Under the pieces are notes generated by a model. The model did no database searches, had not been told where the DNA came from, and saw nothing but the letters and a program-made list of their open reading frames with translations. A stretch of DNA of 64,000 nucleotides from Callorhinchus milii (taxonomy: Eukaryota), in NCBI RefSeq assembly GCF_018977255.1, contig NW_024704814.1:62001-126000 (forward strand), given 5' to 3'. This document shows positions 23,769 through 48,800 of this stretch, piece by piece (the first letter of the stretch is position 1; each line of letters opens with the position of its first letter). Made by a program: the position numbers and the translations under genes.

Positions 23769-23782
23769 ATTAACAACAGAAA

Positions 23783-24118: not shown

Positions 24119-24224
24119 CAAGTTGTGGTTCGGAAGAGGGGGGCAGTGAACCCTACCCGCTGGAGACCTTTACTGTGCCGTTACACTTGAGCAAATTGCG
24201 TCTTTTCCAAAACCGCCACCTCCA

Positions 24225-24490: not shown

Positions 24491-24523
24491 GTGAGGACGT
24501 CGGGGGGCGGGGGGAGGAGAGGG

Positions 24524-25603: not shown

Positions 25604-25900
25604 ACCCAGACTGCTTATGATTCAGATACTTTATTCCATTTCCCTGCCATTCTCTCCCCTCCCCCTCCCCTTCGCAGTATCCAACTCTCACCCTATTGAA
25701 ATACCCAGAAGTGGACAAAAGCTGTGAATTTGGCTCAATCACCTGAAGACGACATTGGGTTTGAAAACTGCCAGAAAACCAACTGCTGTACTATCAGCCG
25801 ATTACCTTTAAACGTGAAGGGTAAATGGCTGCATTATTGGCTTCACACAAAAGAAACTAATCAGATATAAATATGAGCTGCCAACACAAGGCAGGGGAGA

Positions 25901-28900
25901 ATGTCTGAGAAAACCGAAGGGAGCGACATGGAGTGTGGAACTACTTCTGGGAAAGGTAAGTAATCGCCTCTGAATTTCTCTGTACCTTCGTCACTACTTA
26001 ATTTGCCGAAGATATTGTTGAAACAACACGTGTACTTTGATGCATTGGCTATTGACTTGTGAAATTAATTGGATTTACTGCATTGTTGTGTTTAATGTAT
26101 TAATAATATATAATGATATTTTATTATAATCCTCCAATTTGCTAATACGCCTCATCGCAGCAATAAGATATGTCAAAACGATGCACAGAATATATTGTAA
26201 AGTGCATTTGGTGTTTTATGGGTGAAGCACGGCAGCCAAATTGCGCAAAACAGTGAGCCAACACACCACAATGAAAAATTGGAAATCAATCTTCTTATGC
26301 CCTAACCATAAGGCTAACTTTGTAAGTTCATCAAATGAAGGGTTGCATTAGTTGGCTCAGATCAGCATTTAGTACAGAGGATAAATCAATCACTGCCACA
26401 TATCGCTTGTCAAAAGTTAAGTGACATCAATACACCAGAGAAGAAATTCAGTCTCAATCTTGGCAGAGGGGACGGAAACTTTTAATTTTTCTAGTCTCGG
26501 TTGGATCGATGCCAAACATCTTGAAGCTTTGATTTCTACATGTTGAATTATAGTGTTAATAAAATATAAATGTGTAATTATAGTCTTTATATTGAAAGTG
26601 CTCTGGCAATGATTATATCTTAACATTGTCTTTGACTATTGAAAACATCTTATTTTTTAAAAACTAATTCAACCAGTGACGTTATTTCTGTAATTTTTTC
26701 TGAAGATTTCATAATTAGTGCCTAAAAGTCCACTGTTTAAAATGTCTCAAATAGCAAACACAAGAGAGTTAAGATTTTTTTACGTGTGTGGTAAACAGAT
26801 AATCCCTCCAATATATAATAATAATAAATTGGTCATTTTAAATCCACGGTACTTTGTGGGACAGACGCTGCTGTGATCAATTGGCTGCCGCGTTTCGCGT
26901 ACAAATATACAGTCAATTCACGTTACAGTCTATTCTGTGAAGCGCTGCGAGATGTCGAGAAGACGTGAAAAGCGCTACATCAAATGCAATGATTATTATT
27001 GTTATTATTATTATTATAACCGCGTTCCTTCTTATAATTTACGTTATTGGAGGCCTACGTTTTCTACCCTCTCTCGTCCAACTCTGACCCTCGCACAACC
27101 ACGCCACCCCAAGGCTCGGGTCCTGAGCCCCGACTGTTCGGTGCCTTGGGACGTCCTCCTCACTTGAAAACCGCTTTGCAAATGTAATGCTCGTGTTCTT
27201 CTGTTTTAAAAAACATTTCTCTACAGGCGATCAAATCGCAAAGGGGTTCAGCTCCAAACGCAACCGAGTGAGCGGAGGAGAGGCCGGGAGCAGCAGATAC
27301 GGTTTGAGAAAGAGGCAGAGAAGAGATTGCACTGAGGAAAGGGATCTTCCTGCCGATGATTACCTGTGTGAGTGAAAAATCATTCTGAGTTTCTCAGCAT
27401 CAAATGCTCGAGTGCAGAATCGGGCAGATGGCAGCCGGGCTCAGTTGGTGTGCTCTTGGCTCCGAGTCAGAAGGTTGTGGCTTCGAGCGCCACATCGCGG
27501 GCAATGAGCTGACAGTCTGGGCTGACACTGCAGCACAGAGCTGGGGGGAGGGGGGGAGACGATGAACTGTCAGAGGTGCCGTCTCTCCCAGGTGCCCTGG
27601 TTTTCATGGAGCTCAGATGACAGGGCTGGGGAATGGCGACTCAGGTCAGCAACGGCAACCAAACGCTGTCAGCGGGGATGGTCAGCCTGTGCACTGCTGT
27701 GGGGGATGGGAAGGGCTATGAGGAATGAGGAGAGAGCAGTGCAGGGGTCAACATGGGGTTGGGAACACGGCTTTTAATTGGAAAGACAATGATGTCCGGA
27801 TTAAAGAGGTTTTGAGGGAGCGATAGGGATACAGAGGGGAAGGAGAGCCGTGAGAAGGGATAGGAAGGAGGTTGTGGAAAACGCTCATTGAAGATTTAGT
27901 CTGTGCGTTTGAAATATGAGGCCGCGAAGTGACATCACGCAGTGGATTTTGACCATTGGTTGGTTCAGGCGGGAAACGTCAAAATGGCTGCCTCCGTAGA
28001 GCCCCTCCCCCAACCCCCCCACCCCAATCCTGCCCACCACCCCGCGATGCACTGTCATACACCCCGAGCTTTTAAGCTAAAGTCACTCTGTGCCTCTCCA
28101 GACACATAGTAAAGATCCTTTAATGGTGTGGTGCAACACAGAGAAACTCGCTTCTCTTTTGGAAACATTACATGGGATCTTTACTGTCCACCTGAACAGA
28201 CATGGCCGAGGAGCTCATTATCACATTTCATCTGAAGCAATGCACCACCTACAATGGAAAGCATTTCCCGCATTAATATAAGTATCTCCATGTGTCCCAG
28301 ACTGTGGTCAACTACACTGATCACGGAGTCGCCTCACGGCTGTTTGTGGGTAGTTGCTGCCGTCAGAAACTGACACTGTCAATAAGTGATCAGCATGAAA
28401 AGCGGTATATAAATGTAAGCTGCTACTGACCGTACAGTTGGCAGTAAATTATGTAAATCATTGACATCATCAGGTGCTGTACAAATGCAAGGATTCAATC
28501 CAAATTTGCTCAAGAGCAATTCGTAAAGAAAGCTCATATATTGCTTATCCAGATCTTTCTTTTCTCCCATCAGCAGCCAAAGTGGATGATTCTGAGGCTC
28601 ATCCCTGGCCTCATGCCGGCGTTGTGTTGACTCGTGCCGAGTTCCTCCAGGAACACAGCAGAAGACATCCCGAGTTCCATAAAGACACATCAACAACGCA
28701 GACAGCTCGTAGCGCAAATGATGCTTTGCAGCAGAGAGAGTGTCAGGAATCTATTGTATTTCATGTTGAGGTAAACCGAGTCTCGCAAACAGGATCTCTA
28801 CAGGGTCAAAAGCTATCGAACACAGGAGATAGACTGTATAAATGTTCCAGATGTGGTGAGACTTTCATACATTCAGGGCACCTCAAGAGACACCAGCAAT

Positions 28901-29847
28901 CACACCGAGGAAAGCGTCTGTATAAGTGTCTGGAATATGGGAAGAGGTTCAAAATGTTGGGCAGTCTGAAGATACACCATCGATCCCACACAGAAGAGAG
29001 GCCATATAAAGGTGCTGACTGTGGAAAGAGTTTCACAACTTCAAGAGACCTCCAGAGAACCAAACAATCACACACAGGAGAGAAACCATATAAATGTGCA
29101 GAATGTGGAAAGAGTTTTGCAACGTCAACTTATCTCCAGAGACACCATCGATTTCATACAGGAGAGAGGCCACATGAATGTGTTCACTGTGGAAAGAGTT
29201 TTGCAACGTCAGGTTATCTCCAGATACACCATCGGTATCACACAGGAGAGAGGCCATATGAATGTGTTGAATGTGGAAAACGTTGCACAACTTCAAGTCA
29301 CCTCCATATACACCAACAAACACACACAGGACAGAGACGGTATAAATGTGCAGAATGTGGAGTGAGTTTCAGAGCATCAGGATCGCTCAAAATACACCAT
29401 CGATCACACACTGGAGAGAGACCGTATAAATGTGCTGAGTGTGGAAAGAGTTTCATTGCTTCCGGATCGCTCAAAATACACCATCGATCACACACTGGAG
29501 AGAGACCATATAAATGTGCTGAGTGTGGAAAGAGATTTTCAAACTCGAGTTATCTCCAGATACACCATCGATCACACACAGGAGAGAGGCCATACAAATG
29601 TGTACAATGTGGAAAGAGTTTCACAACTTCAGGAGACCTCCAGAGACACCGACAATCACACACAGGAGAGAAACCGTATAAATGTGCAGAATGTGGAAAG
29701 CGTTTCACAACATCAGGGGGTCTCCAGAGACACCAGCCATCACACATCGGAGAGAGACCATATAACTGTACTGAATGTGAAAAGAATTTTACGAGGAAAG
29801 ACCACCTCCAAAGTCACCGGCGGATACACACAGGAGAGACTGTATAA
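25901..29847 (+). CDS. PRDM9-derived SSXRD + C2H2 zinc-finger gene lacking PR/SET, copy 1: join(25901..25955,27227..27367,28574..29847), 489 aa
   Basis: All junctions are GT-AG and phase 1 (AAAG|GTAAG, TACAG|GC, CTGT|GTGAGT, CATCAG|CA); total 1470 nt open. Exon 2 encodes RYGLRKRQRRDCTEERDLPADDYL. Exon 3 starts AKVDDSEAHPWPHAGVVLTRAEFLQEHSRRH, then 12 C2H2 repeats (10 with all Zn ligands). The ATG choice is inferred; the exon probably begins at acceptor 25678. Confidence 0.72.
26795..27020 (+). mobile_element. SINE, 5'-truncated (paralog ~42262-42475)
   Basis: Family body and (TTA)n tail. Confidence 0.82.
27227..27367 (+). CDS. SSXRD-like exon (PRDM9/SSX repression-domain motif), copy 1
   Basis: 141-bp phase 1-1 exon ending ...DDYL|; resembles recalled human PRDM9 [23 protein letters not shown]. 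Confidence 0.78.
27425..27590 (+). mobile_element. 5' part of a second, older tRNA-headed SINE family (paralog ~43055-43230); related 3' parts at ~28090-28430
   Basis: GGCTCAGTTGG..CTCTTGGCTCCGAGTCAGAAGGTTGTGGCTTCGAG head, then GGCTGACACTGCAG..CTGTCAGAGGTGCCGTCT. Confidence 0.65.
27915..27996 (+). promoter_or_regulatory. Intronic promoter-like motif cluster upstream of the ZF exon (paralog ~43556-43636)
   Basis: TGACATCA, CCATTGGTT, GGCGGGAAA (E2F-like) and CAAAATGGCTGCC (YY1-like) within 80 bp. Confidence 0.45.
28574..29847 (+). CDS. Terminal C2H2 zinc-finger array exon, copy 1
   Basis: Within ORF 28474..29847: tandem YKCxECGKSFxxxxxLxxHxRxH-TGE(R/K)P repeats; strong acceptor CTTTCTTTTCTCCCATCAG. 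Confidence 0.93.
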
Positions 29848-31059
29848 TTATGCCGAATGTGGGATGAATTGTGCGGTGTCCTATCAGAAAAATTTAAAAT
29901 GTTCTTTACCAGCGGAAAGCTTTCCAGGAGCCGATACAGTTCAAAGTCCGCACGAGAAGCTCCTTTGAGAAATGCATAGAATAACAATAATAGGTTGATG
30001 TATAACAGGACAGATATCTGTTTGATCCAACACCATTGACTCAGTTAAGACACCAGTGCGACAGTTTGTCCCCTTCTCTCCTGAACATGTGCTGAGGAAC
30101 CAGCGTTTCCTGAAGGTCCTCACAAACTATTGGAGAGAGACCATACGAATGCGCTGAATGTGGAAATAGCCCATGTCCGGCTATCAGCGAGGTGTGTGGC
30201 TGCGGGAGAGAATAACAGAATGGCGCGGTGAAATATGAGCCCTCTGAAACCAGCTGTGGCTTCCAGTATCGGAGCTCACATCACTTAAGTATATATTTTT
30301 GCTCAAAAGCACCTCGTCCCCTGGTTTGTTACCAGCAGAATGGGGAGTGCTTACAGTTTTTTTTTTACCAACCAGTTTTTTTTTCGCTATTTATGTTAAT
30401 CAAAATATTTCCTTTTGAATTCCTGTGCCGGTGGGAGTGGTGGTGGTGGGGGCTGCGGTTGCATGTGTGTGTGTGTACTATGTGTGTGTCTGTGGGCGGT
30501 GTGTGAGGATGGGATTTGTATGTGGGGTGGTGGCTGAATGTGTGAGGAGGGGCTATGTGTGTGGGTGGGTGGGGGTGTGTATCGGATGGGGGGATGTGAG
30601 ACAGGTGGGAGGGGCTGTTGTTGGTGGAGTTGACGGTTGAGGGAGAGGGATATTAATCAGTGTATTTATCAATCTGTCACCGTACGGCTGAGACACTGTC
30701 GACGTTCACTGTGATGTTTCAATGAGCTATTACTAATATTAAAGCCATCGGCACGGAATCATTTGACATTTTCATTCATTCTTATTCTGTCATTTTCTCA
30801 TTTGAGGGACGTAAAGATAATCTTCGTCTCCAAACTCTCTCTCTGTCAATCAGCCGCTGGCGGCTGTGCTGCAATCAGGAGACAGAGAGTGGTGGGGCTG
30901 GAGGAGGATTTCAGTCTGGAGAGCGTATTTGTGCATTAAAGCGAGGTCGTCCACTGAATTGAAGGGGGAGAAGAGGTTTATGTGGGGGGAGGTTAAACCC
31001 CTTTTTGTTGTATTAATATTAATAATTGACAATGCGCCTCATCACATCTTGGAGACCTC

Positions 31060-31235
31060 TTAAAGCGCTTCACAGAATACATTGTAAAGTGTAGTGACTG
31101 TGTTTTTTTGTGAAACACGGTAGACAATAGCACACAGCGACATCCCCACAAACAGTCGTCGATTGAGGGACAACACTATTGTGACTATTATTATTTGGGG
31201 CGAATTGCTCACCGCAGAAAGTGATCCACCAATCG
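31060..31235 (-). mobile_element. SINE fragment
   Basis: AAAGCGCTTCACAGAATAC...CCCACAAACAGTCG, the reverse complement of the family tail/body. Confidence 0.7.
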
Positions 31236-31702
31236 AATAACAACTGTTTGAATGTGTACGGTGGGGGCCGCTTGTGTGGGATTGGGGCTGTGTCGATCTG
31301 TATGGTGCTGGGGGGGGGGGCGGCAATGTGTGTGCCCGGCCAACCCCACAGGCCCATGGTGGTCCCTGATGTGAGCCCTGGGGGGTGGGGGAGCGCAGAG
31401 GGTTGTATTTTTTTGTTGTTGCGCGCACATACTCCTGAAACGAAAATATGACATCAGCGGTTCCCCCACCCCCCCTCTCCACCCCTCCCCACCCCCCCTC
31501 TCCCCCCTCTCCCCCACCCACACCCCCACCGTTCTGCCCCCCCCCCCCCCTCTCTGCCCCTTTCCAACTCCCGGCTCCCCCCCCTCTCCAACCCCTCTCA
31601 CCCCCTCTCTCCCCCACATCTCCACCACTCCCCTACTCTCCCCCATCCCTCCCCGCGCTGTCCTGCCGTCGCTCCGCAGCTCGTAGCCAAACTGTACCCT
31701 CT

Positions 31703-32190
31703 CAGCAGAGAGAGTGTCCGGGATCTATCACTGATGCTGTTGGAGAAAAGGGGTTCACACGATCTATGCAGAGTCACCAGCAATCGATCTCAGGAGAGAA
31801 ACTCTGTAAATGTTCCCAATGTGGGAAGAGTTTCAAACGTTCGGGGACCCTCCACCTTCACCCGAGAATACACACAGGAGAGAAACTGCATAAACATAAC
31901 GAATGTGGGAAGAGTTTTTTTCATTCAGGGGATCTCCACAAACACCAGCGGATACACACAGGAGAGAAATCGTATTAATCTAATGAATGTGGGAAGTTTT
32001 ACAGTGTCAGGAATACTCCGAAAACAACAGCGAATACACACAGGAGAGAAATCTTATAACTTTTCCCAATGTGGGTAGAGTTTCCCACGTTCATGGATCC
32101 TCCACAGTCACCAGCGGATACACACCGGGGGAGAAACCGTATAAATGTGCGGAATGTGGGAAGAGTTTTGCGAACTGCCAACATTACGAA
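31703..32190 (+). pseudogene. Third, decayed C2H2 zinc-finger paralog (~5 fingers with stops and frameshifts)
   Basis: QQRECPGSI.. matches QQRECQESI of copies 1/2; [23 protein letters not shown]; TAA at 31976-31978. The 3' flank 32190-32620 is homologous to 29870-30290. Confidence 0.85.
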
Positions 32191-32425
32191 ACACCACAAA
32201 TTGCTTTGAAAGACGCTGTTCCTGTGGGAAAGTTTTCCAGGACCCGGTGCTGTTCGCAGCTCCACATGAGAAGCTGCTGTGAGAAGTGAAGGAAATAGCT
32301 AGTGTTTGATGTGCAGCGGAGTTCCACTCGATCCAACACCAGCGACTCACAGTGAAGACACCAGTGCGGCAGTTTGTCCCCTTCTCTCCTGACCACGTGT
32401 TGGGGGACCACAATATCCTGCCGGT

Positions 32426-32518
32426 CCTCACACACGCGTGGCTGTTGTGCACATGTCAGGCTGTCACCAGGGGACCTCACACACGCGTGGCTGTTGTGCA
32501 CATGTCAGGCTGTCACCA
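32426..32518. repeat. Tandem duplication, 44 bp identical, period 49
   Basis: CCTCACACACGCGTGGCTGTTGTGCACATGTCAGGCTGTCACCA twice. Confidence 0.9.
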
Positions 32519-32919
32519 TGGCGTGTGGCCGCTGGTGGGTATTACAGAATGGCGCGGTGAGAAATGAGAGCCCGTGTGTCCCCACTGACACCAGTCATGG
32601 CCTCCACTGTCGGCGCTCACATAACTTCACTATATATTATATATTACAGTGTATTATAGGTCTGAAGGTACCTTCTCTCCCCGGTTATTACCATCAAAAT
32701 CAGATATGTTTAGCGGTTTAATTCCAGCGGAATAGGGGCTGTTTGTAGTTTAAAAGATACGTTTATGAGCAGTGGATCAATGTGTTGTTGTTGTTGTTCG
32801 CTGTGAAGCCGATCATTTTACACTCTATACTGTTCTGCTGTTGGGGTCAGTTATTTACCCCATGTGATTGCGGGTTGGATGGGGGTCTGATTCAGACTGA
32901 CTGGGCTGAGTGGCTTCAT

Positions 32920-33805
32920 ACACACCCAGACCCTCCCCTCCTACACTGACCAACACCCCCCCCCGCACTCCACGCATGCAGACACTCGCCGCACACCCCA
33001 GGCCCCGCAAACCACACGCACAGCCGCCCCTCCCCCCACACACAGAAACCCCCCACAAACAACTCCGCCCCACACACACAGACCCGCACACACACGCACA
33101 GCACCTTAATACACAAACACCCCACACCCCACAAACCACATATGCGCCCCCACAGTCAGGACATAAAGCACCCGCCCCCCCCACACAGGACTACCCACCT
33201 ACACAAACACACAGTCGCGCCCCCCCCACACACACAGAACCCTCACACACAAACCCCCTCACCACACACACACAGTGCGCCACCCCCCCCCCCCCACACA
33301 CACTCATCCCCATTCCCTCCATACACACACAGGTACCCTCCCCACACGTACACCGTTCCCCACCCACAAACCCCACACAGAGCACACCCCCCACGACAGA
33401 CAGCGCCACCACCACACATATACAGCCCCCTCCCCACACAAACAGACCCCTTCCCCCACAAACAGTCCCCACTTCCCACACATGCAGCCCCACCTCCCCG
33501 CATATACAGCCCCCCTCCCCAAACATACAGCCTCCCGCCACACACATACAACCCACCTCCGCACACATACATCCCCCTCCTCACATATAGAGCCCCCTCC
33601 CCACACAAACAGCCCCCCTTCTCCACAAATACAGCCCCCCCCACACATACAGGCCCCCTCCTAACACATACAGCTCCCCTACCCACACATACAGCATGCC
33701 CTCCCGACGCATAATTCCAACCCTCCCCACACATACAGTTCCCCTCCCCTCACACACAGCCCTCCTCCCCACACATACAGCCCTCCTCCCAACACATACA
33801 GCCAT
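32920..33805. repeat. C/A-rich degenerate ~20-bp minisatellite (CCCCACACATACAG-like)
   Basis: Directly visible; related low-complexity tracts at 30430-30640 and 31460-31655. Confidence 0.85.
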
Positions 33806-33811
33806 TCTCTG

Positions 33812-34138
33812 TAATAGTAATAATAATAATAATAATAATCCTTGCATTTGATATAGCGCCTTTCACGTCGGGAGTACGCACAAAGCGCTTCACAGAACAC
33901 ACTGTAAAGTGAATCGACTGTATGTTTGTGGGCGAACGTGGCAGGCAATTGCGCACAGCAATGTCCCACAAACAGTCGTGGATTAACAATTTGTTATTGT
34001 TCTTGGTTTTGGAGGGATTATTATTAGGCTCTGTGTGGAGTAAGGAAACTTGCCCAAGATTTCGCTCTCTGCCTGGAATTGAACTCAGGTCTGTCGCTTG
34101 CAAAGGGAGTGCTCTAACCACTGAGATACAGGACTCCA
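33812..34138 (-). mobile_element. Full-length tRNA-headed SINE
   Basis: Reverse complement GGAGTCCTGTATCTCAGTGGTTAGAGCAC head, body and (TTA)n tail. Confidence 0.92.
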
Positions 34139-34199
34139 CGAATGGCGGCACATTGTCGCCTTTCGCTCTCTCGCAACCACACACATGGAGCCCAACCCT

Positions 34200-36363
34200 C
34201 AGCATTGGAGGCACTCTGTAACTCACTGACCCCTCTTCTCCTCTCACCCTCCTCCACAACACCCTCTCCTCCACACTCGATACACTTGCCCCCATCACCT
34301 CCCGTACTGTCTCCTTCTCTCGCTCCTCCCCATGGGTCGCTACACACCTCCGTTCAGTTAAGAGCCACGTGAGGGCCGCTGAACGCACCTGCGTCAAATC
34401 TCGCCTCACGGTCCACCGACAAATCTGGCTGCACCTCCTGAAAATCTACCGCTCCACTCCAGCCTCGGTCAAGTCGTCCTTCTACTCCAGGATAATCTTG
34501 GAGGCGAAGAACAACCCCAGGCTACTGTATTCTGCGACATCCCGAATCCTTCGCCCCCCCCGCCACCCCGCGCAGGTCATCTCCTCCAACATTCACTCTT
34601 TGGAAATGCCGGATTTCCTTGATTCCAATATCAAGGCCATTCGCTCCGCATTCACTTCCCTTCCAACATCCACACACCCACTTACACCCACACTCCGACT
34701 CCTACCCATCCTCCCCTACACAATTTCGTACCCGTTTCCCCACTCTCTGTCACCAAGTTCATCCTATCCCTGAAACCGACCATGTGCTCGCTTGACCCCA
34801 TCCCCACTCCACGCCTTATCTACCAGCTCCACGTCCTTGCCCTACGTATCGCAGACATCGTCGACCTGTCCCTCTCCTCTGGCTCTGTTCCCATTCTCTT
34901 GAAAACCGCCACCATTACTCCCAACTTGAAAAAACTCTCCCTTGATGCGTCCCAGCTATCAAGCTACCGGGCCATATCCAACCTTCCCTTCCTGTCCAAG
35001 GTCCTGGAACGAGTTGTCGCCTCCCAGCTCCGCACTTTCCTCTCCACCCATTCATTTTTCGAGCCCCTTCAGTCGGGTTTCCGTGCTACCGATAGCACAG
35101 AAACTACCCTGGTCAAGTTCACCAATGACATCCTGACCATCTGCGAACAGGGCTCCATCTGCCTCCTCGTCCTCCTCGACCTATCGGCAGCATTCGACAC
35201 GGTCGACAACGCTATCCTCCTCCATCGCTTATACTTCCACCTCAGCCTTCAAGGCCCTGTCGTTGAGTGGTTTAGGTCGTACCTCTCCTACCTTCTTCAC
35301 TTTGTTTCCACGAACGGCTTTTTACTCCATCCCCGCACTGTCTCGTGCGGTGTCGCTCAGGGCTCTGTCCTCGTTCCCCTCCCCTTCACCTTCTATATGC
35401 TCCCCCTGTGGTGCCATCATCCGCAGACATGGGGTTAACTTCCACATGTATGCGGATGACATCCAACTCTACCTTTCCTCCTCTACTCTCAACTCCACGA
35501 CCCCCGATGTCCTGACAGCTGCCTGTCCGACATCGAGTCCTGGACGAGAGACAAATTTCTTCAGCTCAACTTGCACCTCAGGCGCTGACAGCATCAGCAT
35601 CCAAGGCTGCACTCCACCTCTTAAAGCCATCAGAAAACTCGGGGTTCTGTTCGACCTTGAGCTGTCCTTTCTCCCTCATATCCGCGCCACAACTGGCACC
35701 GCCTTCCATCACCTCTGGAATATCGCCAGACGATGGCACTACCTCACCCCTCAAGCGCTGAAACTCTGGTCCACGCCTTTATCACCTCAAGGCTGGACTA
35801 TAGGAACTGTCTCCCTCCACACTGCAGGTCATTCAGAATTCCCCAGCTTGTGTACTGTCCCGCACCAGGCTTCGGGACTACATCACTCCCACCCTCGCTC
35901 CCCTCCACTGGCTCCCCATCCCCCAGAGGATCGAGTTCAAGATCCTCATCCTCGCCTACAAGGCCAATCACGGACTTGCTCCTTCCTGCCTCTCCGACCT
36001 ACTATCCCCCTACCTGCCCGTACCCTCCTTTCCTCTGACTCCAGTCTGCTCCACATCCCCCGCCCCAACCGTCCGACTATCGGTGGTCTTCAGCCTCTCA
36101 GGCCCGAGGCTCTGGAACTCCATCCCTCGGTGCCTTCGCCGCTTCCTGCCTTTCCTCCTATAAGGCCGGTCTCAAGTCCTTTCTCTTTGACCGTGCCTTA
36201 ACCTCCACTCTCGACTCTCTACCCCATCCTCGCTCCCTCCCTTCCCTCCCCTCACCCTGACCATTTCCCCCCAAGGCTCGGGTCCTGACCCAACTGCCCA
36301 GCGCCTTGGGACGTCCTCCCGACGTGAAAGGCGCTCTATTGGAATCTTGTTGTTGTTGTTGTT
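34200..36363 (+). mobile_element. 5'-truncated L2-clade LINE with frameshifted reverse transcriptase
   Basis: CSLDPIPT, YRAISNLPFLSKVLERVV, QSGFRATDSTET, LLDLSAAFDTV, GVAQGSVL, YADDIQLY, LGVLFD; 3' tail ends in (TTG)n. Confidence 0.95.
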
Positions 36364-38175
36364 CCAAGGCCTTGACAGCATTCCTAACGTGTGGTGCCCA
36401 GAAATGAACGCAGTGAGTCCTCGCGCTGAAGCCTCATCGGTGTTTTATACACATCATAACCTCCTTAATTTCGTCTCCTGGACGATAGACATTGGAGTCC
36501 TGCGGTTCGGTGGACAGAGCGCTCGCCGTGCGAGCGAGACGTCTGGTTCGTACCCGGTCAGGCAAAACCGGTGGCGAGTTTCCTTACTCCAGACACGCGA
36601 TAATAATCCCTATAGAGGGGCAAAACAAACAAATATAAATTGGTCACTTCAACCCACGGCTGCTTGTGCGACGCTGCTGTGCACCATCGGCTGCCGCGTA
36701 TCACCAACAAATATACAGTCACTTCACTTTACGATGTATTCCGTGAAGCGCTTTGGGACGTCTGTGAGTCACAATGAGGCACTGTATCAAATGGAAGTAT
36801 TACTACTATTGCACTGGGTACCAGGCGCAGCTCGCGGAAGCTACAGGACTGACCAAGCATTAATACTACACACACCATTAATACCCCACACATCCCCTTA
36901 ATAGCCCACACCCCATTAATACCCAACACACCTCATTAATATCCCACAGTGCCCGTTAATACCCCACAAAGCCCATAAATACCCCACACAGTCCGTTATT
37001 ACCCCACACAGACCAGTAATAGCCCACACACAATCAACACCCCACACACACCAATAATATCCCATACACGACAGTAATCTACCACATAGTCCACTAATCC
37101 CCCACACAGTCCATTAATCCCCCACAAAGCCCAGTAGTACCCCAGCAGCCTAGTCATATCCCCCACAGCCCAGTAATACACTCCACAGCTCATTAGTACC
37201 CCCCACAGCCCATTAATACAACTCAAAGCCCATTAATATCCCCATAGCCCATTAATACCCCCCACAGCCCACTAATATCCCACACCGCGCCTTAATAATC
37301 TACACAACTCATTAATACCCTGAACAGACAATTAGTACCCAGCACAGCTCATTAATACCTCAAACACTCCATTAATACCCCACACCGCATGAATACAACA
37401 CGCAATCAATACCTCTAGCAACCCATCAATACCCCACACACACCGTCAGTAAAGCATACACCCATTAGTACCCCACACACCATTAGTACCCCACACACCA
37501 TTAGTACCCCAAACACCATTAGTACCCCACACACCATTAGTACCCCACACACCCATTAGGACCCCACACCCATTTTACCCCTCACACCATTTTACCCCAC
37601 ACCTACTGGTATTGCACAAACCCATTGGTACCCTCACACCCATTGGTAACCCTCACACCCATTAATACCCCACACACATTGCTCTGACCCCGCCCACTCG
37701 CTCCCCATTGGTCCACCTCAAGCCCCGCCCCTTCAGCCACAGCCCTATTGGTGCGTCCGTCACAAACTGCACTGTGATTGGCCCTCCGTCCCCGTCAATC
37801 ATCTGCACTTCCGCCCCATCTCTCTGTCCTTCTCTCTCTCCTTCTCTCTTTCCCTCCCTCACCGTCTCTCTCTCCTTCTCTCTCTCTTCCTCCCTCAACG
37901 TCTCTCTCTCTTCCTCCCTCACCGTCTCTCTCTCCTTCTCTCTCTCTCTCTATCCCTCACCGTTTCTCTCTACTTTCTCTCTCTCTCCCTCCATCACCGT
38001 CTCTCTCTCCTTCTCTCTCCTTCTCTCTCTCTCTCTCTATCACCCACCGTCTCTCTCTCCTCTCCCTCTCCGTCTCTCTCTCCTTATCTCCCTCTCTCTT
38101 TGTTCCTCACCGTCTCTTTCTGTCTGTGCCTCAACATCTCTCCTCTATCTCTCTCCCTCACCGTCTCTGTCTCCT

Positions 38176-38206
<31 letters not shown>

Positions 38207-41200
38207 CTCAACGTCTCTCTCTCCTTCTCTCTCTCTCTCTGTCCCTCACCGTCTCTCTCTCTCTGTCACTTACCGTCTCTCTCTCCTCTCTCTCTCTCCC
38301 TCACCGTCTCACTCTCTTTCTCTCTCTCACCGTCTCACTCTCCTTCTCTCACTCTCTCTGTCCCTCACCGTCTCTCTCTCCTCTCTCTCTCCCTCACCGT
38401 CTCTCTCACCTTCTCTCTCTCTCACTCTCTCTGTCCCTCACCGTCTCTCTCTCCTTCTCTCCCTCACCGTCTCACCCTCCTTCTCTCTCTCACTCTCTCT
38501 GTCCCTCACCGTCTCTCTCTCTCTCTCTCTGTCCCTCACCGTCTCTCTCACTTTCTCTCTGTCCCTCACCGACTCTCTCTCTCTCTGTCCCTGACCGTCT
38601 CTCTCTCTCTCTCTCTCCCTCACCGTCTCACTCTCTCTCTGTGTGTGTCCCTCACCGTCACTGTCTCTCCTTCTCCCTCTCTCTCACTCACTGTCTCTCT
38701 CTCTTTTTATCAATCTCTCCCGCCCTCAGTGTCTCTCTCTCCTTCTCTCTCTCTCTCTCCCTCCCTCACGGTTTNNNNNNNNNNNNNNNNNNNNNNNNNN
38801 NNNNNNNNNNNNNNNNNNNNNNNNNNNNNNNNNNNNNNNNNNNNNNNNNNNNNNNNNNNNNNNNNNNNNNNNNNNNNNNNNNNNNNNNNNNNNNNNNNNN
38901 NNNNNNNNNNNNNNNNNNNNNNNNNNNNNNNNNNNNNNNNNNNNNNNNNNNNNNNNNNNNNNNNNNNNNNNNNNNNNNNNNNNNNNNNNNNNNNNNTCTC
39001 TCTCCCACACCGTCTATCTCTTCTTCTCTCTCTGTCCCTCACCGTCTTTCTCTCCTTCTCTCTCACTCTCTCTGTCCCTCACGGTATCTCTCTCTCTCCG
39101 TATCCGGAGCCGCCGCTGACGGCCGCCGCGTGCGAAGACGCAATGACGCAGGGCCGGGAGTCCCACCCGCGCGGTGACGTCGGCATGTACGGCGCCGTAC
39201 GGCACCGCTCTCCGCTGGGGGCCGCCATGTTGTACGGCGCGGCTTCTGCAATAACAACAACAGCAACAATAATAATAATAATCCTCGCATTTTATATAGC
39301 GCTTTTCACGTCGGGAGGACGTCCCAAAGCGCTTCACAGAACACACTGTAGAATGAATTGATTGTATATTTGTGGGCGAACGCAGCAGTCAATTGCGCAC
39401 AGCAATGTCCCACAAACATTCGTGTGTTGGAAATGACCAATTCATTTTTGTTTGGGTTTTTTTTTTGGAGGGATTATTATTAGGCTCTGTGTGGAGTAAG
39501 GAAACTTGCCCAAGGTTTGGCCCTGACCTGCCTGGGATTGAACTCCGGTCTCTCACTTGCAAAGCGAGTGCTCTAACCACTGAGCTACAGGACTCCACAA
39601 GTTCTGGTTGGGGGGAGGGGGGCAGTGAACCCTACCCTCTGGAGACCTTTAATGCGCCTTTACACTTGAGCAAATTGCGTCTTTTCAACAACCGCCACCT
39701 CCACGCAGTCTAGCGTCTCAGAGCGCTTCAGCGTGGTGGAGTTTGACCGGCCCGGGGAGGGCGGGAGGTGACACGGTCGGAAGGGAAGATTTTCAGGCAG
39801 GACGTGAAAAGGGGGAAAGGGGTCAATGCGGGAAGATTGCGGGAGAGAGTTCAGGATTTTCGTGGGTCAGTGGCTGAAAGGGCGACCGCCAATGATGGAG
39901 CGGATGGGGGGAGGGACAAGGTGGAGGCCGGTGCCAGACGAGCGGAGGCGCCGAGTGGTGGATTGGGGAGTGAGGAGATCAGGGGGCGGAGTGGTCGGAG
40001 AGGGGGACATTAACGGCACATTAAAGAGAGGGACTTTTAATGCGCAGTTTCAATAGGTGCAAATCGTATCTATTCAACTGCACAGTAAACAAAGGGCCAT
40101 TTAATGTGCGGTTTAATTTGTTGTAAATTGTAGGTATTGAACGCCACATTAAACAAAGGCCCCAGGAGTTGGCCGGCAGTAACCTGACCCTCTCCTCCTG
40201 GGCTGGACAGCTTCGCTCATACCTGAGAGGGAATTGAAATATCTCGTGACATGAATGGAAAAGACAAGTGAGTTTCTCTCTCGCGGGTCCTGACTGACAG
40301 TCCTCCACATTAATCCCCTCGGCGGAGGGGAGGGGGAAATCTATCTGTGGTGGTGGGGTGTGGGGTGGGAAATTAAGCAGCTCAGAGCCTGCAATGGGCG
40401 TCTTCAATAGGTGCAAATGGTATCTGATACATTTAGTGCTGAGATGTGTTGCCCACCTGGAAAACCGCAGGGAATTCCTTGTACCCACCGCCTACATAGT
40501 GAGGCTCAATCCCGCGCTTGTCGGACGCAGAACGTCCATCTGGTGACTGTGCTCCTCGGGGACGGCGATCGGGGCGTAAAACTAAACACTGGTTTACAAA
40601 ATGCAACTTGTGTTTAAGGATATCAGACATTCGGTCCCGCAGTTACAGGAGAATATCCTTCAGATTTTGGGGTCCTGTGGCTCAGTGGTTAGAGCACAAG
40701 CTTTGCGAGCGAGACACCTGGGATCAATTCCAGGCAGAGCAAACCCTCGGGCAAGTTTCCCTACTCCACACGTCTAATAATAATCCCTCCAGAACAAAAG
40801 AATAATAAATTGGTCATTTTCAATCCACGACTGTCTGTGGGACACTGCTGTGCGCAATTGGCTGCCGCGTTTCGCCCACAGATATACGGTGAATATATTT
40901 TCAGATCCCACAGACTTAAAAAGCGCTGAATCAAATACAATGATAATTATTGTTATTATCACCCAGACTGCTGATGATTCAGATATTTTATTCCATTTCT
41001 CTGCCTTTCTCTCCTCTCCCCCTCCCTTTCGCAGTATCCAATTCTCACCCTATTGAAATACCCAGAAGTGGACAAAAGCTGTGAATTTGGCTCAATCACA
41101 TGAAGACGACATTGGCTTTGAAAACTGCCAGAAAACCAACTGCTATACTATCAGCCAATTACCTTTAAACGTGAAGGGAATACGGCTGTATTATTGGCTT

Positions 41201-41256
41201 CCCACAAAGAAACTAATCAGATATAAATATGAGCTGCCAACACAAGGCAGGGGAGA

Positions 41257-44200
41257 ATGTCTGAGAAAACCGAAGGGAGCGACATGGAGTGTGGATCGAC
41301 CTCTGGGAAAGGTAAGTAATCGCCTCTCAATTTCTCGGTACCTTCGTCACTACTTTATTTGCTGAAGATATTGTTGAAACAACACGTTTACTTTGATGCA
41401 TTGGCTATTGACTTGTGAAATGAAGTTGGATTTTTACTGCACTGTTGAATTTAATGTATTAATAATATATAGTGATATTTCATTATAATCCTCCAATTTG
41501 CTAATGCGCCTCATCACAGCAATTAGATATCTCAAAACGCTGCACAGAATATATTGTAAAATGCATTTGGTGTTTTGTGGGTGAAACGCCTAAGATGCAG
41601 AGTGCAGTTAGTTTTTTTTCATTAGAAACGTCTTTCTCAGGGATTTCGGTTTTATTTAATGACATTTCTGAAAACATGATTTGTACTCATTTACGTGTAA
41701 GTAGTCTGTGAGGAAGGTCTGAATGATGCCTTTCCTTTTGATTGTGCTCTGAGACGCTATCCTGCACGGAGGGCGCTATATAAGTGCAAGTTGTAGTGTT
41801 CGGTTTGAATCCAGGTGGATTAGTACAGAGGATACATCAATCACTACCACTACCACATATCGCTTGTCAATAGTTAAGTGACATCAATACACCAGAGAAG
41901 AAATTCAGTCTCAATCTTGGCAGAGGGGACGGAAACTTTTCATTTTTCTAGTCTCGGTTGGATCGATGCCAAACACCTTGAAGCTTTGATTTCTACATGC
42001 TGAATTACAGAGTTAATAAAATATAAATATGTAATTATAGTCTTTATTAGCACATTGAACGTGCTCTGGCAATGATTATATCTTAACATTGTCTTTGACT
42101 TTTGAAAACATCTTATGTTTTGAAAACTAATTCAACCAGTAACGTACTTTCTGTAATTTTTTCTGAATATTTCATAATTAGTGCCTAAAAATCCACTGTT
42201 TAAAATGTCTCAAACAGCAAACACAAGTGAGTTAAGATTTTTTTTACGTGTGTGGTAAACAGATAATCCCTCCAATATAAAATAATAATAAATTGGTCAT
42301 TTTAAACCCACGACTGTTTGTGAGACAGACACTGCTGTGATCAATTGGCTGCCGCGTTTCGCCCTCAAATATACAGACAATTCACTTTACAGTCGATTCT
42401 GAGAAGCACTTTGAGATGTCAAGAAGACGTGAAAACCACTATATCAAATACAATGATTATGATTATTTTTATTATAAGCGCGTTCCTACTTATAATTTAG
42501 GTAATCGGAGGCCTGTGGTATAAATAATAATATTAATATTAATTCTTACATTTGATATAGCGCTTCTCACGTCGGGAGGACGTCCCAAAGCGCTTCATAG
42601 AACAAACTGAAAAGTGAATTGACTGTATATTTGTGGGCGAACGCGGCAGCCAATTGCGCACTGCAATGTCCCACAATCAGTCGTAGATTGAAAATAACGA
42701 ATTTATGATTGTTTCTGGTTTTTGGAGGGATTATTATGAGGCTCTTTGTGGAGTAAGGAAACGTGCCCAAGGTACCTTGGGACGTCCTCCTCAGTTGAAA
42801 ACCGCTTTGCAAATGTAATGTTCGTGTGCTTCTGTTTTAAATAACATTTCTCTACAGCAGATCAAATCGCAAATGGGTTCAGCTCCAAACGCAACCGAGT
42901 GAGCGGAGGAGAGTACGGGAGCAGCAGATACGATTTGAGAAAGAGGGATAGAAGGGATTACACTGAGGAAAGGGATCTTCCAGACGATGATTACCTGTGT
43001 GAGTGAAAAATCAATCTGAGTTTCTCAGCATCAAATGCTCGAGTGCAGAATCGGGCAGATGGCAGCCGGGCTCAGTTGGTGTGCTCTTTGCTCCGAGTCA
43101 GAAGTTTGTGGGTTTGAGCCCCACATCGCGGGCAACGAGTTGACAGTCTGGGCTGACACTGCAGTACAGAGCTGGAGTGGGGGGTGGGGGGGTGGGTAGC
43201 GACGCACTGTCAGATGTGCCGTCTCTCCCCGGTGACCTGGTTTTAATGGAGCTCAGTTGACAGGGCTGGGGAATGGCAACTCAGGTCAGGAACGGCAACC
43301 AAGCGCTGTCAGCAGAGATGGTCAGCCTTTCCACTGCTGTGGGGGATGGGAAGGGCTATGGGGACTGAGGAGAGAGCAGTGCAGGTGGTCAATATGGGGT
43401 TGGGAACACGGCACTTAATTGGAAAAACAATGAAATCCAGATTAAAGAGGTTTTGAGGAAGCGATAGGGATACAGATGGGAAGGAGACCCGTGAGAAGGG
43501 ATAGGAAGGCGATTGAGGAAAATGCTCATTGAAGATTTAGTCTGTGCGTTTGAAATATGAGGCCGCGAAGTGACATCACGCAGTGGATTTTGACCATTGG
43601 TTGGTTCAGGCGGGAAACGTCAAAATGGCATCCTCCGTAGAGCCCCGCACCCTAATCCTGCCCATCACCGCGCGATGCACTGTCATACACCCCGAGCTTT
43701 TAAGCTAAAGTCACTCTGCGCCTCTCCAGACACATAGTAAAGATCCTTTAATGGTGTGGTGGAACACAGAGAAACTCGCTTCTCTTTTGGAAACATGTCA
43801 TGGGATCTTTACTGTCCACCTGAACAGACATGGCCGGGAGCTCATTATAACATTTCATCTGAAGCACAGCACCTCCTACAATGGAAAGCATTTCCCGCAT
43901 TAATATAAGTATCTCCCTGTGTCCCAGACCGTGGTCAACTACACTAATCACGGAGACGCCTCACGGCTGTTTGTGGGTAGTTGTTGCCATCATAAACTGA
44001 CACTGTCAATAAGTGACCAGCATGAAGGGCGGTATATAAATGTAAGCTGCTACTGACCGTACAGTTCGCAGTAAATAATGTAAATCATTGACATCACCAG
44101 GTGCTGTACAAATGCAAGGATTCAATCGAAATTTGCTCCTGAGCAATTCGTACAGAAAGCCCATATATTGCTTATCCAGATCTTTCTTTTCTCCCATCAG

Positions 44201-45860
44201 CAGCCAAAGTAGGTGATTCTGAGTCTCATCCCTGGCCTCATGCCAACGTTGTGTTGAGTTGTGCCGAGTTCCTCCAGGAACACAACAGAAGACATCCCGA
44301 GTTCCATAAAGACACATCAACAACGCAGACTGCTTGTAGCGCAAATGATGCTTTGCAGCAGAGAGAGTGTCAGGAATCTATCGTATTTCATGTTGAAGAA
44401 AACCGAGTCTCGCAAACAGGATCTCTACAGGGTCACAAGCAATCGATCTCAGGAGATAGACTGTATAAATGTTCCCGATGTGGTGAGAATTTCATACATT
44501 CAGGGCACCTCAAGATACACCAGCAATCACTCCGAGAAAAGCGTCTGTATAAATGTGTGGAATGTGGGAAGAGTTTCACAGGATCGGACAGTCTGCAGAT
44601 ACACCATCGATCACACACAGGAGAGAGGCCATATAAATGTGCAGTATGTGGAAAGCGTTTTGCAACGTTAGCTTATCTCCAGATACACTATCGGTATCAC
44701 ACAGGAGAGAGGCCATATGAATGTGTTCAGTGTGGAAAGAGTTTTACACAATCAGGAGAACTCCAGAGACACCAGCAATCACACACAGGAGAGAAACCGT
44801 ATAAATGTGCTGAATGTGGAAAGAGTTTCACAAGGTCGTGTTATCTCCAGGTTCACCATCGATCACACACAGGAGAGAAACCATATGAATGTGCAGAATG
44901 TGGAAAGAGTTTCAGAGCAACAGGATCGCTCAAAATACACCATCGTGTGGAAAGAGTTTCACTGCTTCAGGATCTCTCAAAATGCACCATCGATCACACA
45001 CTGGAGAGAGACCATATAAATGTGCTGAGTGTGGAAAGAGTTTTTTATCCTCGAGTAAACTCCAGGGACATCATCGATCACACACAGGAGAGAAACCATA
45101 TAAATGTGCAGAATGTGGAAAGAGTTTCAGAGCATCAGGATCGCTCAAAATACACCATCGATCACACACTGGAGAGAGACCGTATAAATGTGCTGAGTGT
45201 GGAAAGAGTTTTTTAACCTCGAGTAATCTCCAGGGACATCATCGATCACACACAGGAGAGAGGCCACACAAATGTGTTCAATGTGGAAAGCGTTTCACAA
45301 CGTTGCCTTATCTCCAGATACACCGACAGTCACACACAGGAGAGAAACCGTATAAATGTGCAGAATGTGGAAAGTATTTCACAACGTCAGGTTATCTCCA
45401 GAGACACCGACAATCACACACAGGAGAGAAACCTTATAAATGTGTTCAATGTGGAAAGCGTTTCACAACGTCAGGGAATCTCCAGACACACCAGCGATCA
45501 CACACAGGAGAGAAACCGTATAAATGTGCAGAATGTGGAAAGTGTTTCACAAGGGCAGACAGTCTCCAGAGACACCAGCGATCACACACCGGGAAAAGGC
45601 CACACAAATGTGTTGAATGTTGAAAGAGTTTCACAAAGTCAGGAGACCTCCAGGGACACCGACAATCACACACGGGAGAGAAACCGTAAAGATGTGTTGA
45701 ATGTGGAAAGAGTTTTAAAAGGCCAAGTTATCTCCAGAGACACCAGCGATCATACAGCGGAAACAACCATATAACTCTACTGAATGTGAAAATATTTTCA
45801 AGGAAATAGCACCTCCAAACTCACCAGCAGATACACACAGGAGAGACTGTATAATTATGC
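41257..45860 (+). pseudogene. PRDM9-derived SSXRD + ZF gene lacking PR/SET, copy 2, disrupted: exons 41257..41311, 42858..42998, 44201..~45860
   Basis: Exon 2 encodes RYDLRKRDRRDYTEERDLPDDDYL. About 17 finger units; ~37-bp deletion at ~44945 shifts the frame (stop at 45216), TGA at 45621-45623 and TAA at ~45687. Confidence 0.82.
42530..42773 (-). mobile_element. SINE present only in duplication copy B, tail-to-tail with the SINE at 42262-42475
   Basis: Reverse-complement family tail/body; absent at the corresponding position ~27055-27140 in copy A. Confidence 0.85.
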
Positions 45861-48800
45861 CGAATGTGGGAATAATTTTGCGGTGTCGTATCAGAAAAAA
45901 AAATGTTCTTTATCAGCGGAAAGCTTTCCAGGAGCCGATACGGTTCAAAGTACGTACGAGAAGCTGCTTTGAGAAATGCATAGAATAACAATAATAGTTT
46001 GATGTATAACAGGACAGATATCTGTTTGATCCAACACCATTGACTCAGTTAAGACACCAGTGCGATAGTCTGTCCCCTTCTCTCCTGAACATGTGCTGAG
46101 GAACCAGCATTTCCTGAAGGTCCTCACAAACTGTTAGAGAGACCATACGAATGTGCTGAATGTGGAAAGAGCCCATGTCCGGCTATCACTGAGGTGTGTG
46201 GCTGCGGGAGAGAATAACAGAATGGCGCGGTGAGATATGAGCCCTCTGAAACCAGCTGTGGCTTCCAGTATCGGAGCTCACATCGCTGAAGTATATATTT
46301 TTGGTCAAAAGCACCTCGTCCCCTGGTTTGTTACCAGCAGAATGGGGAGTGCTTATAGTTTTTTTTTTTACCAACCAGTTTTTTTTTTCGCTGTTTATGT
46401 TAATCAAAATATTTCCTTTTCATTGCTGTGCTGGTGGGAGTGTTGGTGGTGGGGGCTGTGTTTGTGTGTGTGGTGGGGCTGGATGTGTGAGGAGGGCATC
46501 TGTGTGCGCGCGCGGGTTGGGGGGTGTGTGGNNNNNNNNNNNNNNNNNNNNNNNNNNNNNNGTTATTTGTAAATGGACGGTATTCAGGAATAGAGATATC
46601 TGAACCGGAGTCGTTTCCGTACTTCCTGCATCAGGAAAGTGAGTCACGCCCACTATCTCCCTGGTAAGTGTTGATTGACAGGAAAGAGTGATAGCCCACT
46701 GTCTCCCTGGTAACTTTTGATGGACAGAAAAGAGGGAAACGCCCACTCTCTCACTGGTAACCAGTTATTGACAGGAAAGGAATACACGCCCACTGCCTCA
46801 CTGGTAACCAGTGATTGACAGGAAAGAGAACACGTCCACTACTCTAAACTGGTAACAAGTGACTTACGTGACACACAGCAACTAACATTGTGTTTAATAT
46901 TGTTATTATTCCCCCGGCTCGGAGTTAGTAACCGCCATTATTAACGAATGTTATTACATTGTTATTACACAATGTAATAATTACGCACTGATACGGTGCC
47001 CAGTTTGGAGCGGAGGTGCTGTATCAGTTCATATTCTCCTTCCTATTTTTATTGTTGTATTATTTTTATTATTAATTTCCATAAACAACTAAAACCAGTT
47101 GCGTTTATATAGCGGACTCCACTTTGGGTGACTTCCACAGTACTTTACAATTGAGGAACATGATATTGCATAGTACATACATCGCAATGGACTACATACA
47201 ACCATAATAAATACGAACCAAATAATTATATCATCTGCTAAATAAAACAGTGTCAAAAAAACTCTGAACACCCAGTGAATTCCTGTGTCAATACGATTTG
47301 ATCTTGAAATATTAATAATAATCCTTGCATTTGATTTAGCGCCCATGAGAGTATGCTGTCAATTAACTTTACAGTATAATACGCGAAGCACATTGAGACT
47401 TCTAAAAGACATGATAAGGCAGAACTTCCAAAGCAAATTTAACTATTATTGTTAAAAAGCAAATTGGAAGCTTAAAGCGGGTTTCTGTCAAGAGAAATGT
47501 AAAAACAACGCTCCTTTACATTTATTCTGCTGTTGAGTTGAGCTGTTTTTCTCACTTTTAAAGTTAAATGTTTGAGCCTTTTCGCATGAGGTGTTGTGTG
47601 GTTTGTGCTTTATATCCGGTAATGCTGTTGAGGTGACACTATCACAAAGTTTAGCTACATATCACTCATTACCGTTTAATACTATTTACAATATTGAGCT
47701 GATCTGGACTCTAATGCCAGGAGAAAATCCCTTCTTTTTCCCAAATAGCATCACAGGATGTTTAATGTCTGTCCTGAGCACGGCACAAACTAGGGCTGAG
47801 TTTATCACTGCGTCTTAGATCGACAGCGAGAAAGAGAGGGAAAGAGAGACTAAGAATGTGAGAGGCAACGGGCGTAAGAGACAAAGATAGTGTGAGAGAT
47901 TCAGAGAGAGAGTGAAAGAGAGAGAGAGAGCTTCAGAGACACAAAAGGAGAGCGAGAGCTTTCATAGTGTGAGAGAGAGAGGCAGAGTGTGAGAGAAGCT
48001 TCTAAGCTAACACCATGAAAGTGGTTCAGCTTCGCATCAGCTTTTGCCATTTGAAAGCATGTTCAATATTAACCCTTTCGTACAACTTAAATTGAGTTAC
48101 TCTGGAATATAACAATTGGAGAAACTCCCTTCTCACTTCCCGAAAACGTCTCGGGATCTTAACAATTGTCTTCAACACAAAACAAATAAAGGTCAGTTGA
48201 ACCTCTCATTTCAAAGCCTATGATAAGCAGACGGTAAGTTTGAGTGAGAGCGACTATGTTTGCGAGTGGCTTACAGTGTGAGAGAAGCTTAAGGGGAGAT
48301 TGAGAGTGGTAGTGTGAGAGATACAGAGGGAGAGTGAGATTGGACGAGTGACAGGGGGACACATTGTGTTTGACAGAGAACTTGAGAGACACAGTTGGAG
48401 AGAGACTGAGAGTGTGAGAGACAAGGTGTGTGTGTGATACAGACTTTGAGAGAAACATATGGAGGGAGACTGGGAATTTCAGAGACACATACGGAGATAG
48501 ACGGACTGAGAGTTTGAGCGACACAGTTTTCAGAGTGTGCGAGAGAATGCGAGAGTCACAGTCTTTGTGTGTGGGAGAGACTGAGAGTGTGAGCAAAGAA
48601 AAGTTGGAGCAACTCTCTTCGCTTCACGCTATATACTTGAAGGTTTTTTCTCAGAGCCACAGACCAAATCTCTCATTCTCTCTGTCTGAGTCGTAGATTT
48701 TCTCCGTATTAAAACTGATCAAAAGCGTGCAGCGAATTTTGTTTTAATTGCATTTTGTGTATGTTGGAGCTGCAGAGACGAGAGAGCAGAATTTAATCCA

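Follow-up and report, generated by a model that had tools for sequence, protein, structure and literature searches.

The window analysed here, 64,000 nucleotides of the chimaera Callorhinchus milii (assembly GCF_018977255.1, contig NW_024704814.1, positions 62,001 to 126,000 of the forward strand; coordinates below are positions within it), holds two C2H2 zinc-finger genes that lie in tandem duplicates. Comparison of the window with itself places the duplicates at about 20,984-30,471 and 36,529-46,472, i.e., units of about 10 kb at an offset of 15.6 kb, in a region rich in tRNA-derived short interspersed nuclear elements (SINEs) and pieces of long interspersed nuclear elements (LINEs). A preliminary description of this DNA regarded the two genes, its copies 1 and 2 and here copies A and B, as SET-less relatives of PRDM9 whose finger arrays bear the signature of PRDM9-like turnover. 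In our analysis SET is indeed absent, ancestry in PRDM9 is likely, and the arrays turn over by gain, loss and exchange of units, but a signature of PRDM9 grade is absent.

Gene structure of the two copies

Both copies follow one exon plan (Table 1). A start exon of 277-278 nucleotides (nt) closes with an ATG-initiated stretch of 18 codons, an SSXRD-like exon follows, and the fingers lie in the last exon. The exon junctions are of phase 1 with ag/gt ends and give a single continuous frame when joined, which in copy A, with the predicted splicing, is open over 489 codons. The 28-residue C2H2 repeats with TGEKP-type linkers, contained in one exon, match PF00096 with E 2e-57 in copy A and 2e-32 in copy B, and by these repeats the genes are tandem C2H2 zinc-finger genes. 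Translation gives 12 units in copy A and 17 in copy B, in agreement with the 12 and about 17 reported before, and all 12 + 16 of the previously listed contact triplets (helix positions –1, 3 and 6) agree with it as well.

The damage in both genes had gone unmentioned. In copy A, units 2 and 3 lack zinc ligands and in unit 6 a Cys replaces the core Phe, with all four ligands retained in 10 of the 12 units. In copy B, a 37-nt deletion at 44,945/44,946 fuses units 6 and 7 and shifts the frame, and the predicted product has 403 residues with four intact fingers (units 2-5), unit 1 being without its last His. Further lesions lie downstream in units 15-17 (TGA at 45,621, TAA at 45,687, deletions of 1 nt and 2 nt, and TAG at about 45,807). 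Units 8-14 are intact yet out of frame and form the longest intact part of copy B; the 37-nt deletion is therefore recent, polymorphic or an assembly error.

Functional PRDM9 carries a PR/SET domain between the SSXRD and the finger exon, and none is present here: no SET remnant was found in the 1,206-nt intron of copy A by Pfam searches of open and read-through frames, a PDB search of one frame, or a scan for SET motifs. Pfam likewise detected no KRAB domain in the plus-strand read-through frames of 12,850-22,000, 23,570-28,600, 29,860-31,680, 32,200-37,600 and 39,000-44,200, the upstream runs of N and the CT repeats remaining unscanned; in the scanned ranges there is thus neither the ancestral KRAB of functional PRDM9 nor the KRAB-A box that stands upstream of the array in KRAB zinc-finger genes (KRAB-ZNFs). 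A faint KRAB-A-like stretch at 26,425-26,529 had no Pfam match and stands as a possible lead. The degenerate finger that opens the last exon of copy A is still recognisable as finger-like in the PDB, by its match with a consensus zinc finger (E 0.006).

Contigs from four of 24 listed sequencing runs (X1, X5, X7 and X8) were compared over 23,620-30,450, which spans the copy A region; the array of copy B and its 37-nt deletion lie outside. That X5, X7 and X8 are RNA is a tool's guess, and X7 and X8 come from one study. Contigs in X7 and X8 stop at 25,676 and at 25,953-25,956 and continue into other sequence; allowing for shared letters, these are the predicted splice sites of the start exon. In X8, the alignment of contig 27 (433 letters, depth 57.7) with the finger exon begins at its letter 90, at position 28,582, and the single contig of that depth contributes a piece of at least 69 letters ending at 27,362. 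At most 20 letters are left between the two pieces, where a direct splice needs 13, so there is no room for SET, and a direct join of the SSXRD-like exon to the finger exon appears to be used, at least in a third paralogue. The joint itself is placed from the piece ends and is not among the joints listed, the lists being dominated by SINE copies.

The same contigs give an independent view of the array order of copy A, covering units 1-7 and 11-12 in an unchanged order, with 0-9 differences per piece. Pieces of A type in X7 and X8 (0-3 differences) cover the start exon and units 1-4, broken fingers included; over units 4-7, 8-9 of about 310 letters differ in X7 and X8, and 1 of 179 in X5. Contigs of X5 cover introns, with no splice-like ends among the pieces listed. 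Repeat-free intron bins have little or no cover in X7 and X8, and this was not used as evidence. X1 holds both A-type and B-type sequence, one of its contigs being equal to the pre-array part of copy B in difference count and in the letters listed (15 of 15 differences). At 28,755-28,814, contigs of X5 and X7 show B-type letters inside otherwise A-type sequence, which is a conversion patch or an old allele.

Table 1. Exons, arrays and related features of the two zinc-finger genes (positions in the window)
Feature	Position	Strand	Basis or remark
Copy A start exon, 278 nt: 5' untranslated part, likely ATG at 25,901, 18 codons	25,678-25,955	+	ag/gt ends
Copy A SSXRD-like exon, 141 nt, phase 1-1	27,227-27,367	+	ag/gt ends; phmmer matches
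Copy A intron without gap at the expected place of the SET exons, 1,206 nt	27,368-28,573	+	Pfam, PDB and SET motif scans
Copy A last coding exon: relic finger, linker, 12-unit C2H2 array, stop	28,574-29,847	+	predicted spliced protein of 489 residues
Copy A degenerate finger opening the last exon; three Cys ligand positions lost or shifted	28,600-28,668	+	likened to the PRDM9 post-SET finger
Copy A array, 12 units of 84 nt	28,843-29,844	+	translation; contigs for units 1-7 and 11-12
Older, broken remains of a third, related last exon	31,676-32,170	+	about 4.5 units with stops and frameshifts
Copy B start-exon counterpart, ATG at 41,257	41,035-41,311	+	ag/gt ends
Copy B SSXRD-like exon	42,858-42,998	+	tblastn with P0001/P0003: 70% identity, E 2e-15
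Copy B last-exon frame: relic finger, units 1-6, frameshift, out-of-frame tail, stop	44,201-45,216	+	translation
Copy B array, 17 units	44,470-45,840	+	translation

Two kinds of candidate promoter accompany the exons. In both copies the intron without SET (27,940-27,995 and 43,580-43,635) holds a conserved CCAAT-like box and, with an ATG, a YY1-like motif, which in copy A lies at 27,981; together they form a possible internal promoter. A CpG-rich stretch follows the CT repeat in each unit (23,620-23,770 and 39,095-39,250), where the YY1-like motif is oppositely oriented and the translation resembles, at 7 of 11 positions by eye, the first exon of the C. milii model P0002 described below. The stretch at about 23,620-23,770 is a further possible candidate promoter.

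Array turnover and diversity at contact positions

Outside the arrays, copies A and B differ at 209 of 3,340 aligned columns, or 6.3% (seven segments, range 4.6-8.5%). The close alignment described before, up to the first finger and again after the last, was recovered: A1 and B1 differ at 6 of 84 bases and A12 and B17 are similar, which is the level of the flanks. When the internal units A2-A11 are compared by position, 12-28 of 84 bases differ between the copies, and when they are compared with their best match in copy B, 101 of 840 bases differ (12%, with 52.6 expected). The arrays have thus diverged faster than their flanks, as proposed, and the excess is still about twofold with best-matched units.

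The correspondence between units is only partly collinear. A7-A8-A9 correspond to B6-B7-B8, and B9-B10 repeat B6 and B8 (1/56 and 6/84 differences, respectively); B4, B12, B13 and B15 are nearest to A10, and A3 and A6 are without a close partner. Within one unit, the knuckle, helix and linker thirds have their matches in different units, and in a permutation test of mosaicism neighbouring informative sites were more compatible than permuted ones (p=0.0004), a result to which sites within one codon contribute too. Unequal crossing-over and patchy conversion between 84-nt repeats that are old and diverse would leave such a pattern. The likeness of A7 and B9 (2/84 differences, with an exact match of 90 nt) was considered as a recent conversion between the copies and dismissed as unremarkable, since exact matches as long as 106 and 74 nt occur in the flanks too.

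To place these arrays relative to PRDM9, we used the statistic of Baker et al. 2017 (PMC5519329), i.e., the share of amino-acid diversity found at four columns, which hand recomputation of the human and C. milii rows indicates to be helix positions –2, –1, 3 and 6. Heterozygosity was taken here without sample-size correction, which largely cancels in the ratio. On these columns the share was 0.269 for A4-12, 0.258 for B1-5 and 0.342 for B8-14, and on positions –1, 2, 3 and 6 it was 0.259, 0.273 and 0.358, respectively. In the same study, six listed complete PRDM9s (human, mouse, python, coelacanth and two salmon) have shares of 0.50-0.91 at a unit DNA diversity of 0.03-0.11, the conserved salmon PRDM9-beta has 0.18-0.19 at 0.29-0.30, and the C. 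milii PRDM9 model CM1 has 0.314 (rank 6 of 63) at 0.17; the lowest share of a complete orthologue in Table 1 of that study is 0.33. By this comparison, B8-14 would rank high among the zinc-finger genes of the species.

The backbone DNA of the units had been called homogeneous, which it is not. Pairs of units differ in their DNA by a mean of 0.23-0.27 within copy A and 0.23-0.29 within copy B; at synonymous sites the difference is 0.37, calculated from all 190 pairs that 20 internal units form. With a share of 0.26-0.34 at a unit diversity of 0.23-0.29, the combination of near-identical backbones and contact-concentrated diversity that makes the PRDM9 signature is absent, and neither copy has the homogenised array, diverse at its DNA-binding sites, of functional PRDM9. 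Contact sites are enriched for change, but their share stays below that of the six complete PRDM9s. In a minimum spanning tree of the 20 units, 40 of 119 amino-acid changes fall at contact residues (p=4e-5 against 4/22, the changes not being independent), as do 13 of 41 in ten chosen close pairs of units (p=0.005-0.026); A1, A2, A12, B1, B6, B7 and B15-17, which are terminal, partial or broken, were omitted from the tree statistics. Enrichment of this kind is general in zinc fingers (PMC10547256). The differences between the arrays are likely to come from ordinary unit shuffling, and not from the extreme pattern of a hotspot-directing PRDM9.

Ancestry, constraint and competing explanations

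The closest proteins to the predicted genes are three uncharacterised C. milii models, LOC103185808 (P0001), LOC103191364 (P0003) and LOC103190347 (P0002). Among 1.84 billion representatives, the 141-nt exon of copy A matches only two proteins, both from C. milii (phmmer E 6e-9 and 4e-7). The three models carry the same SSXRD-like exon (58-72% identity) and no Pfam domain, and the beginning of P0003 also matches the final codons of the copy A start exon; they differ in an extra exon of about 80 codons, which was found in neither A nor B, and in that the models stop with the SSXRD-like exon or just past it and have no fingers. A metagenome scan with P0003 as query found no relative.

Four short motifs would connect these sequences to PRDM9, compared by eye with a single human reference, the sequence printed in PMC3836704. 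The end of the start exon matches the stretch that ends the human KRAB region at 5 of 8 positions, and the extra exon of P0002 shares 7 of 16 identities with the human stretch that comes next. The last 23 residues of the 141-nt exon, aligned ungapped to the end of human SSXRD, agree at 11 positions in copy B and 9 in copy A, a match that P0003 extends by one Tyr, and the relic finger agrees with the human post-SET finger, also ungapped, at 8 of 24 residues. The motifs stand in the human order, and the matched human stretches presumably end or begin exons. For the copy B exon, the ungapped BLOSUM62 score against the human stretch is about 52 as computed by hand, roughly E 5e-4 for that pair, which is not a tool result. 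PRDM9 is laid out with two exons for KRAB, one for SSXRD, three for SET and one for the fingers (PMC11703093). Descent of the two genes from PRDM9 is on this evidence probable, and it suggests that C. milii has an SSXRD, reported earlier as not found there. Very poor scores are a known trait of SSXRD in cartilaginous fish (in whale shark, E 103; PMC5519329), and in the C. milii models none was found (PMC5519329, PMC8892340).

The genes resemble PRDM9, the C. milii models CM1 and CM2 included (PMC5519329), in the SSXRD-like exon, the finger that opens the last exon, the single-exon tandem array of 84-nt units with turnover, and a contact-site share near that of CM1. They differ in being without SET exons and a detectable KRAB, in the decay of the post-SET finger, and in units that are 23-29% apart, against 3-11% in PRDM9 and 17% in CM1; an SSXRD-like region, which Baker et al. 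did not find in CM1 and CM2, is present. Having neither SET nor KRAB nor a homogenised array, the genes fall outside functional PRDM9, and they fall outside the KRAB-ZNFs as well. In salmonids (PMC11703093) as in cnidarians (bioRxiv 10.64898/2026.09.07.749791), truncated and decaying duplicates of PRDM9 are frequent, with a similar birth-and-death of tandem copies through exon loss, frameshifts and stops. However, SET is required by definition in the cnidarian survey, where only the ends are lost, and salmonid copies without SET exons are classed as likely non-functional, whereas in the chimaera genes the loss is internal, the frame is kept and the exons are apparently spliced. Among the SET-less families thought to derive from PRDM9 by domain loss, i.e., coelacanth aKRAB-ZNFs, tetrapod KRAB-ZNFs and mammalian SSX (PMC8835667), the coelacanth genes kept aKRAB and lost SSXRD and SET, and SSX kept aKRAB and SSXRD without fingers; the chimaera family keeps an SSXRD-like exon and fingers without a detectable KRAB. 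No description of the SSXRD-plus-fingers layout in cartilaginous fish was found in the literature searched, from which most subscription journals were missing.

Over 181 codons of the non-array part and first finger, copies A and B differ by 0.062 per nonsynonymous site (pN) and 0.082 per synonymous site (pS), with 0.063 in non-coding sequence, and in the SSXRD-like exon alone pN/pS is 1.17. Since copy B may be relaxed, these rates do not prove neutrality in copy A.

We favour, at somewhat better than an even chance, a weakly constrained family of SSXRD-plus-zinc-finger genes born from PRDM9 duplicates. The tandem copies would have arisen from PRDM9 by loss of the SET exons and of a recognisable KRAB. 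Copy A retains the exon order, the splice sites, a full open frame and a gap-free intron without SET, and the four motifs in human order point to PRDM9 as the ancestor. The contigs suggest that the SSXRD-to-finger splice is used, at least in a third paralogue, with copy A sequence in the same apparently spliced runs. The arrays display duplication and loss of units and exchange of partial units, which unequal crossing-over and gene conversion acting on old, diverse units would produce, and the family as a whole would be in birth-and-death turnover under weak constraint. Copy B would be truncated or dying and copy A at most a low-constraint transcription factor, its likeliest activity, if any, being SSXRD-mediated repression. 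Such an SSXRD-finger protein would bind DNA, but could not write the histone marks of PRDM9 or place recombination hotspots.

Several observations weigh against a weakly constrained family of PRDM9 descent. Profile and database searches gave no link to PRDM9 for any part, the motif matches having been made by eye against one reference: the Pfam models for SSXRD (PF09514), KRAB and SET were unmatched in the predicted parts; among PDB chains, none of PRDM9 or SSX matched the non-array parts; searches for homologues, made with the pre-array region and with an SSXRD alignment against longer proteins, were blank; and in the ESM Atlas the SSXRD part was unmatched and the pre-array part led to generic zinc-finger clusters only. 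With about 90% identity to copy A, and 33 differences from it over a stretch in which B has 22, the splice-bridging contig belongs to neither copy, and both RNA-guessed runs with splice-like contigs belong to the one study. The share of B8-14 (0.342) exceeds that of the species' own PRDM9 model (0.314), and complete PRDM9s reach down to 0.33. Both copies are open over the 543-nt non-array frame, for which the chance under neutrality is about 0.03; structural finger residues have a pN of 0.014-0.027 against a pS of 0.19-0.37; and in the spanning tree the contact-site pN of 0.31 is higher than the overall pS of 0.185 (Fisher p=0.002), while about equal to the pS at the same codons (0.30). Because frames were kept open and structural residues conserved, constraint on the family is weak or recently lost, not nil.

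The blank searches would also fit a C2H2 family of the ordinary, lineage-specific kind, in which the likeness of the short N-terminal exons to PRDM9 is fortuitous, and the array is nearer to ZFP568 than to PRDM9 in the PDB. We consider this unlikely, given that the four motifs stand in PRDM9 order with two at exon ends, that the copy B exon reaches the score given above, and that SSXRD is known to score so poorly in cartilaginous fish. The high share of B8-14 could instead point to a very recent loss of SET, after which the arrays would retain traces of selection from hotspot-directing days, the first option of the preliminary description; a remnant of the signature following domain loss has been reported for salmon (PMC11703093) and cnidarians (bioRxiv 10.64898/2026.09.07.749791). 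However, SET is missing from both copies and apparently from the third type, about 10% divergent, so the loss is older than these duplications; both copies show the same decay of the post-SET finger, and the unit backbones are far apart, which together leave this a very improbable account. Least credible of all is that the array differences are assembly errors, or that A and B are two alleles assembled in tandem. Gaps (runs of N) lie upstream of both zinc-finger genes, the contigs examined bear on the array of copy A and not on that of copy B or the 37-nt deletion, and one diploid run could carry A and B as alleles. Yet units 1-7 and 11-12 of copy A recur in other runs, the X1 contig agrees with the pre-array part of copy B, a single gap-free stretch (23,567-38,774) takes in copy A as well as the beginning of the second duplicate unit, and a third paralogue type exists.

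A different reading keeps the PRDM9 ancestry and makes the SET-less genes working SSXRD repressors, whose fingers track transposons or satellites under positive selection as in KRAB-ZNFs and the FiNZ-ZNFs of fish. The contact-position changes (40/119 and 13/41), the existence of at least three paralogue types and three related C. milii models, the finding that SSXRD bears most of the repressor activity of SSX (PMC8835667) and the tracking of transposons by zinc-finger families across animals (PMC10547256) are in its favour. An arms race with transposons may have taken place; we hold this reading to be improbable beside the weakly constrained family. There is a similarly small chance that chimaeras independently repeated the transition from PRDM9 to repressor, with a multi-copy expressed family, SET dropped in frame, SSXRD and not KRAB as effector, and arrays selected to track repeats. 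If true, this would be a third route beside those of tetrapod KRAB-ZNFs and coelacanth aKRAB-ZNFs, taken in a species that retains SSXRD. A PRDM9-grade signature without SET would have been surprising; the signature is not there, and what remains is modest. The SET-less layout is one that SET-anchored surveys miss by design, and the family offers a natural test of whether SSXRD alone serves as the effector of a zinc-finger protein.

Sequence around the cluster

The finger-exon remnant at 31,676-32,170 lies directly downstream of copy A and is preceded by a C-rich tract. Long degenerate arrays of an 18-20-nt repeat, together with CT-rich tracts, stand at the start of each duplicated unit (14,500-22,000 and 36,860-37,680), and a broken LINE reverse-transcriptase copy (RVT_1, E 3e-18) lies at the junction of the two units (34,220-36,300). 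tRNA matches at 24,036, 25,314, 39,523, 40,671 and 60,273 fall inside repeated elements and were taken as SINE heads.

The zinc-finger tandem is bracketed by an inverted duplicate of 11.4 kb with 97.5-99.3% identity (1,236-12,626 and 46,632-58,068), whose right arm begins 70 bases past a gap of 30 N. This may represent a genuine palindrome, or else a second haplotype that was assembled in reverse orientation. Adjoining the cluster are repeated immunoglobulin-like exons at about 58,200-63,700 (plus strand) and 960-1,340 (minus strand), with weak matches to Ig_2, Ig_3 and Ig_C19orf38 and, in some exons, Phe at the position expected for the first Cys; these exons likely belong to an immune-receptor gene family.

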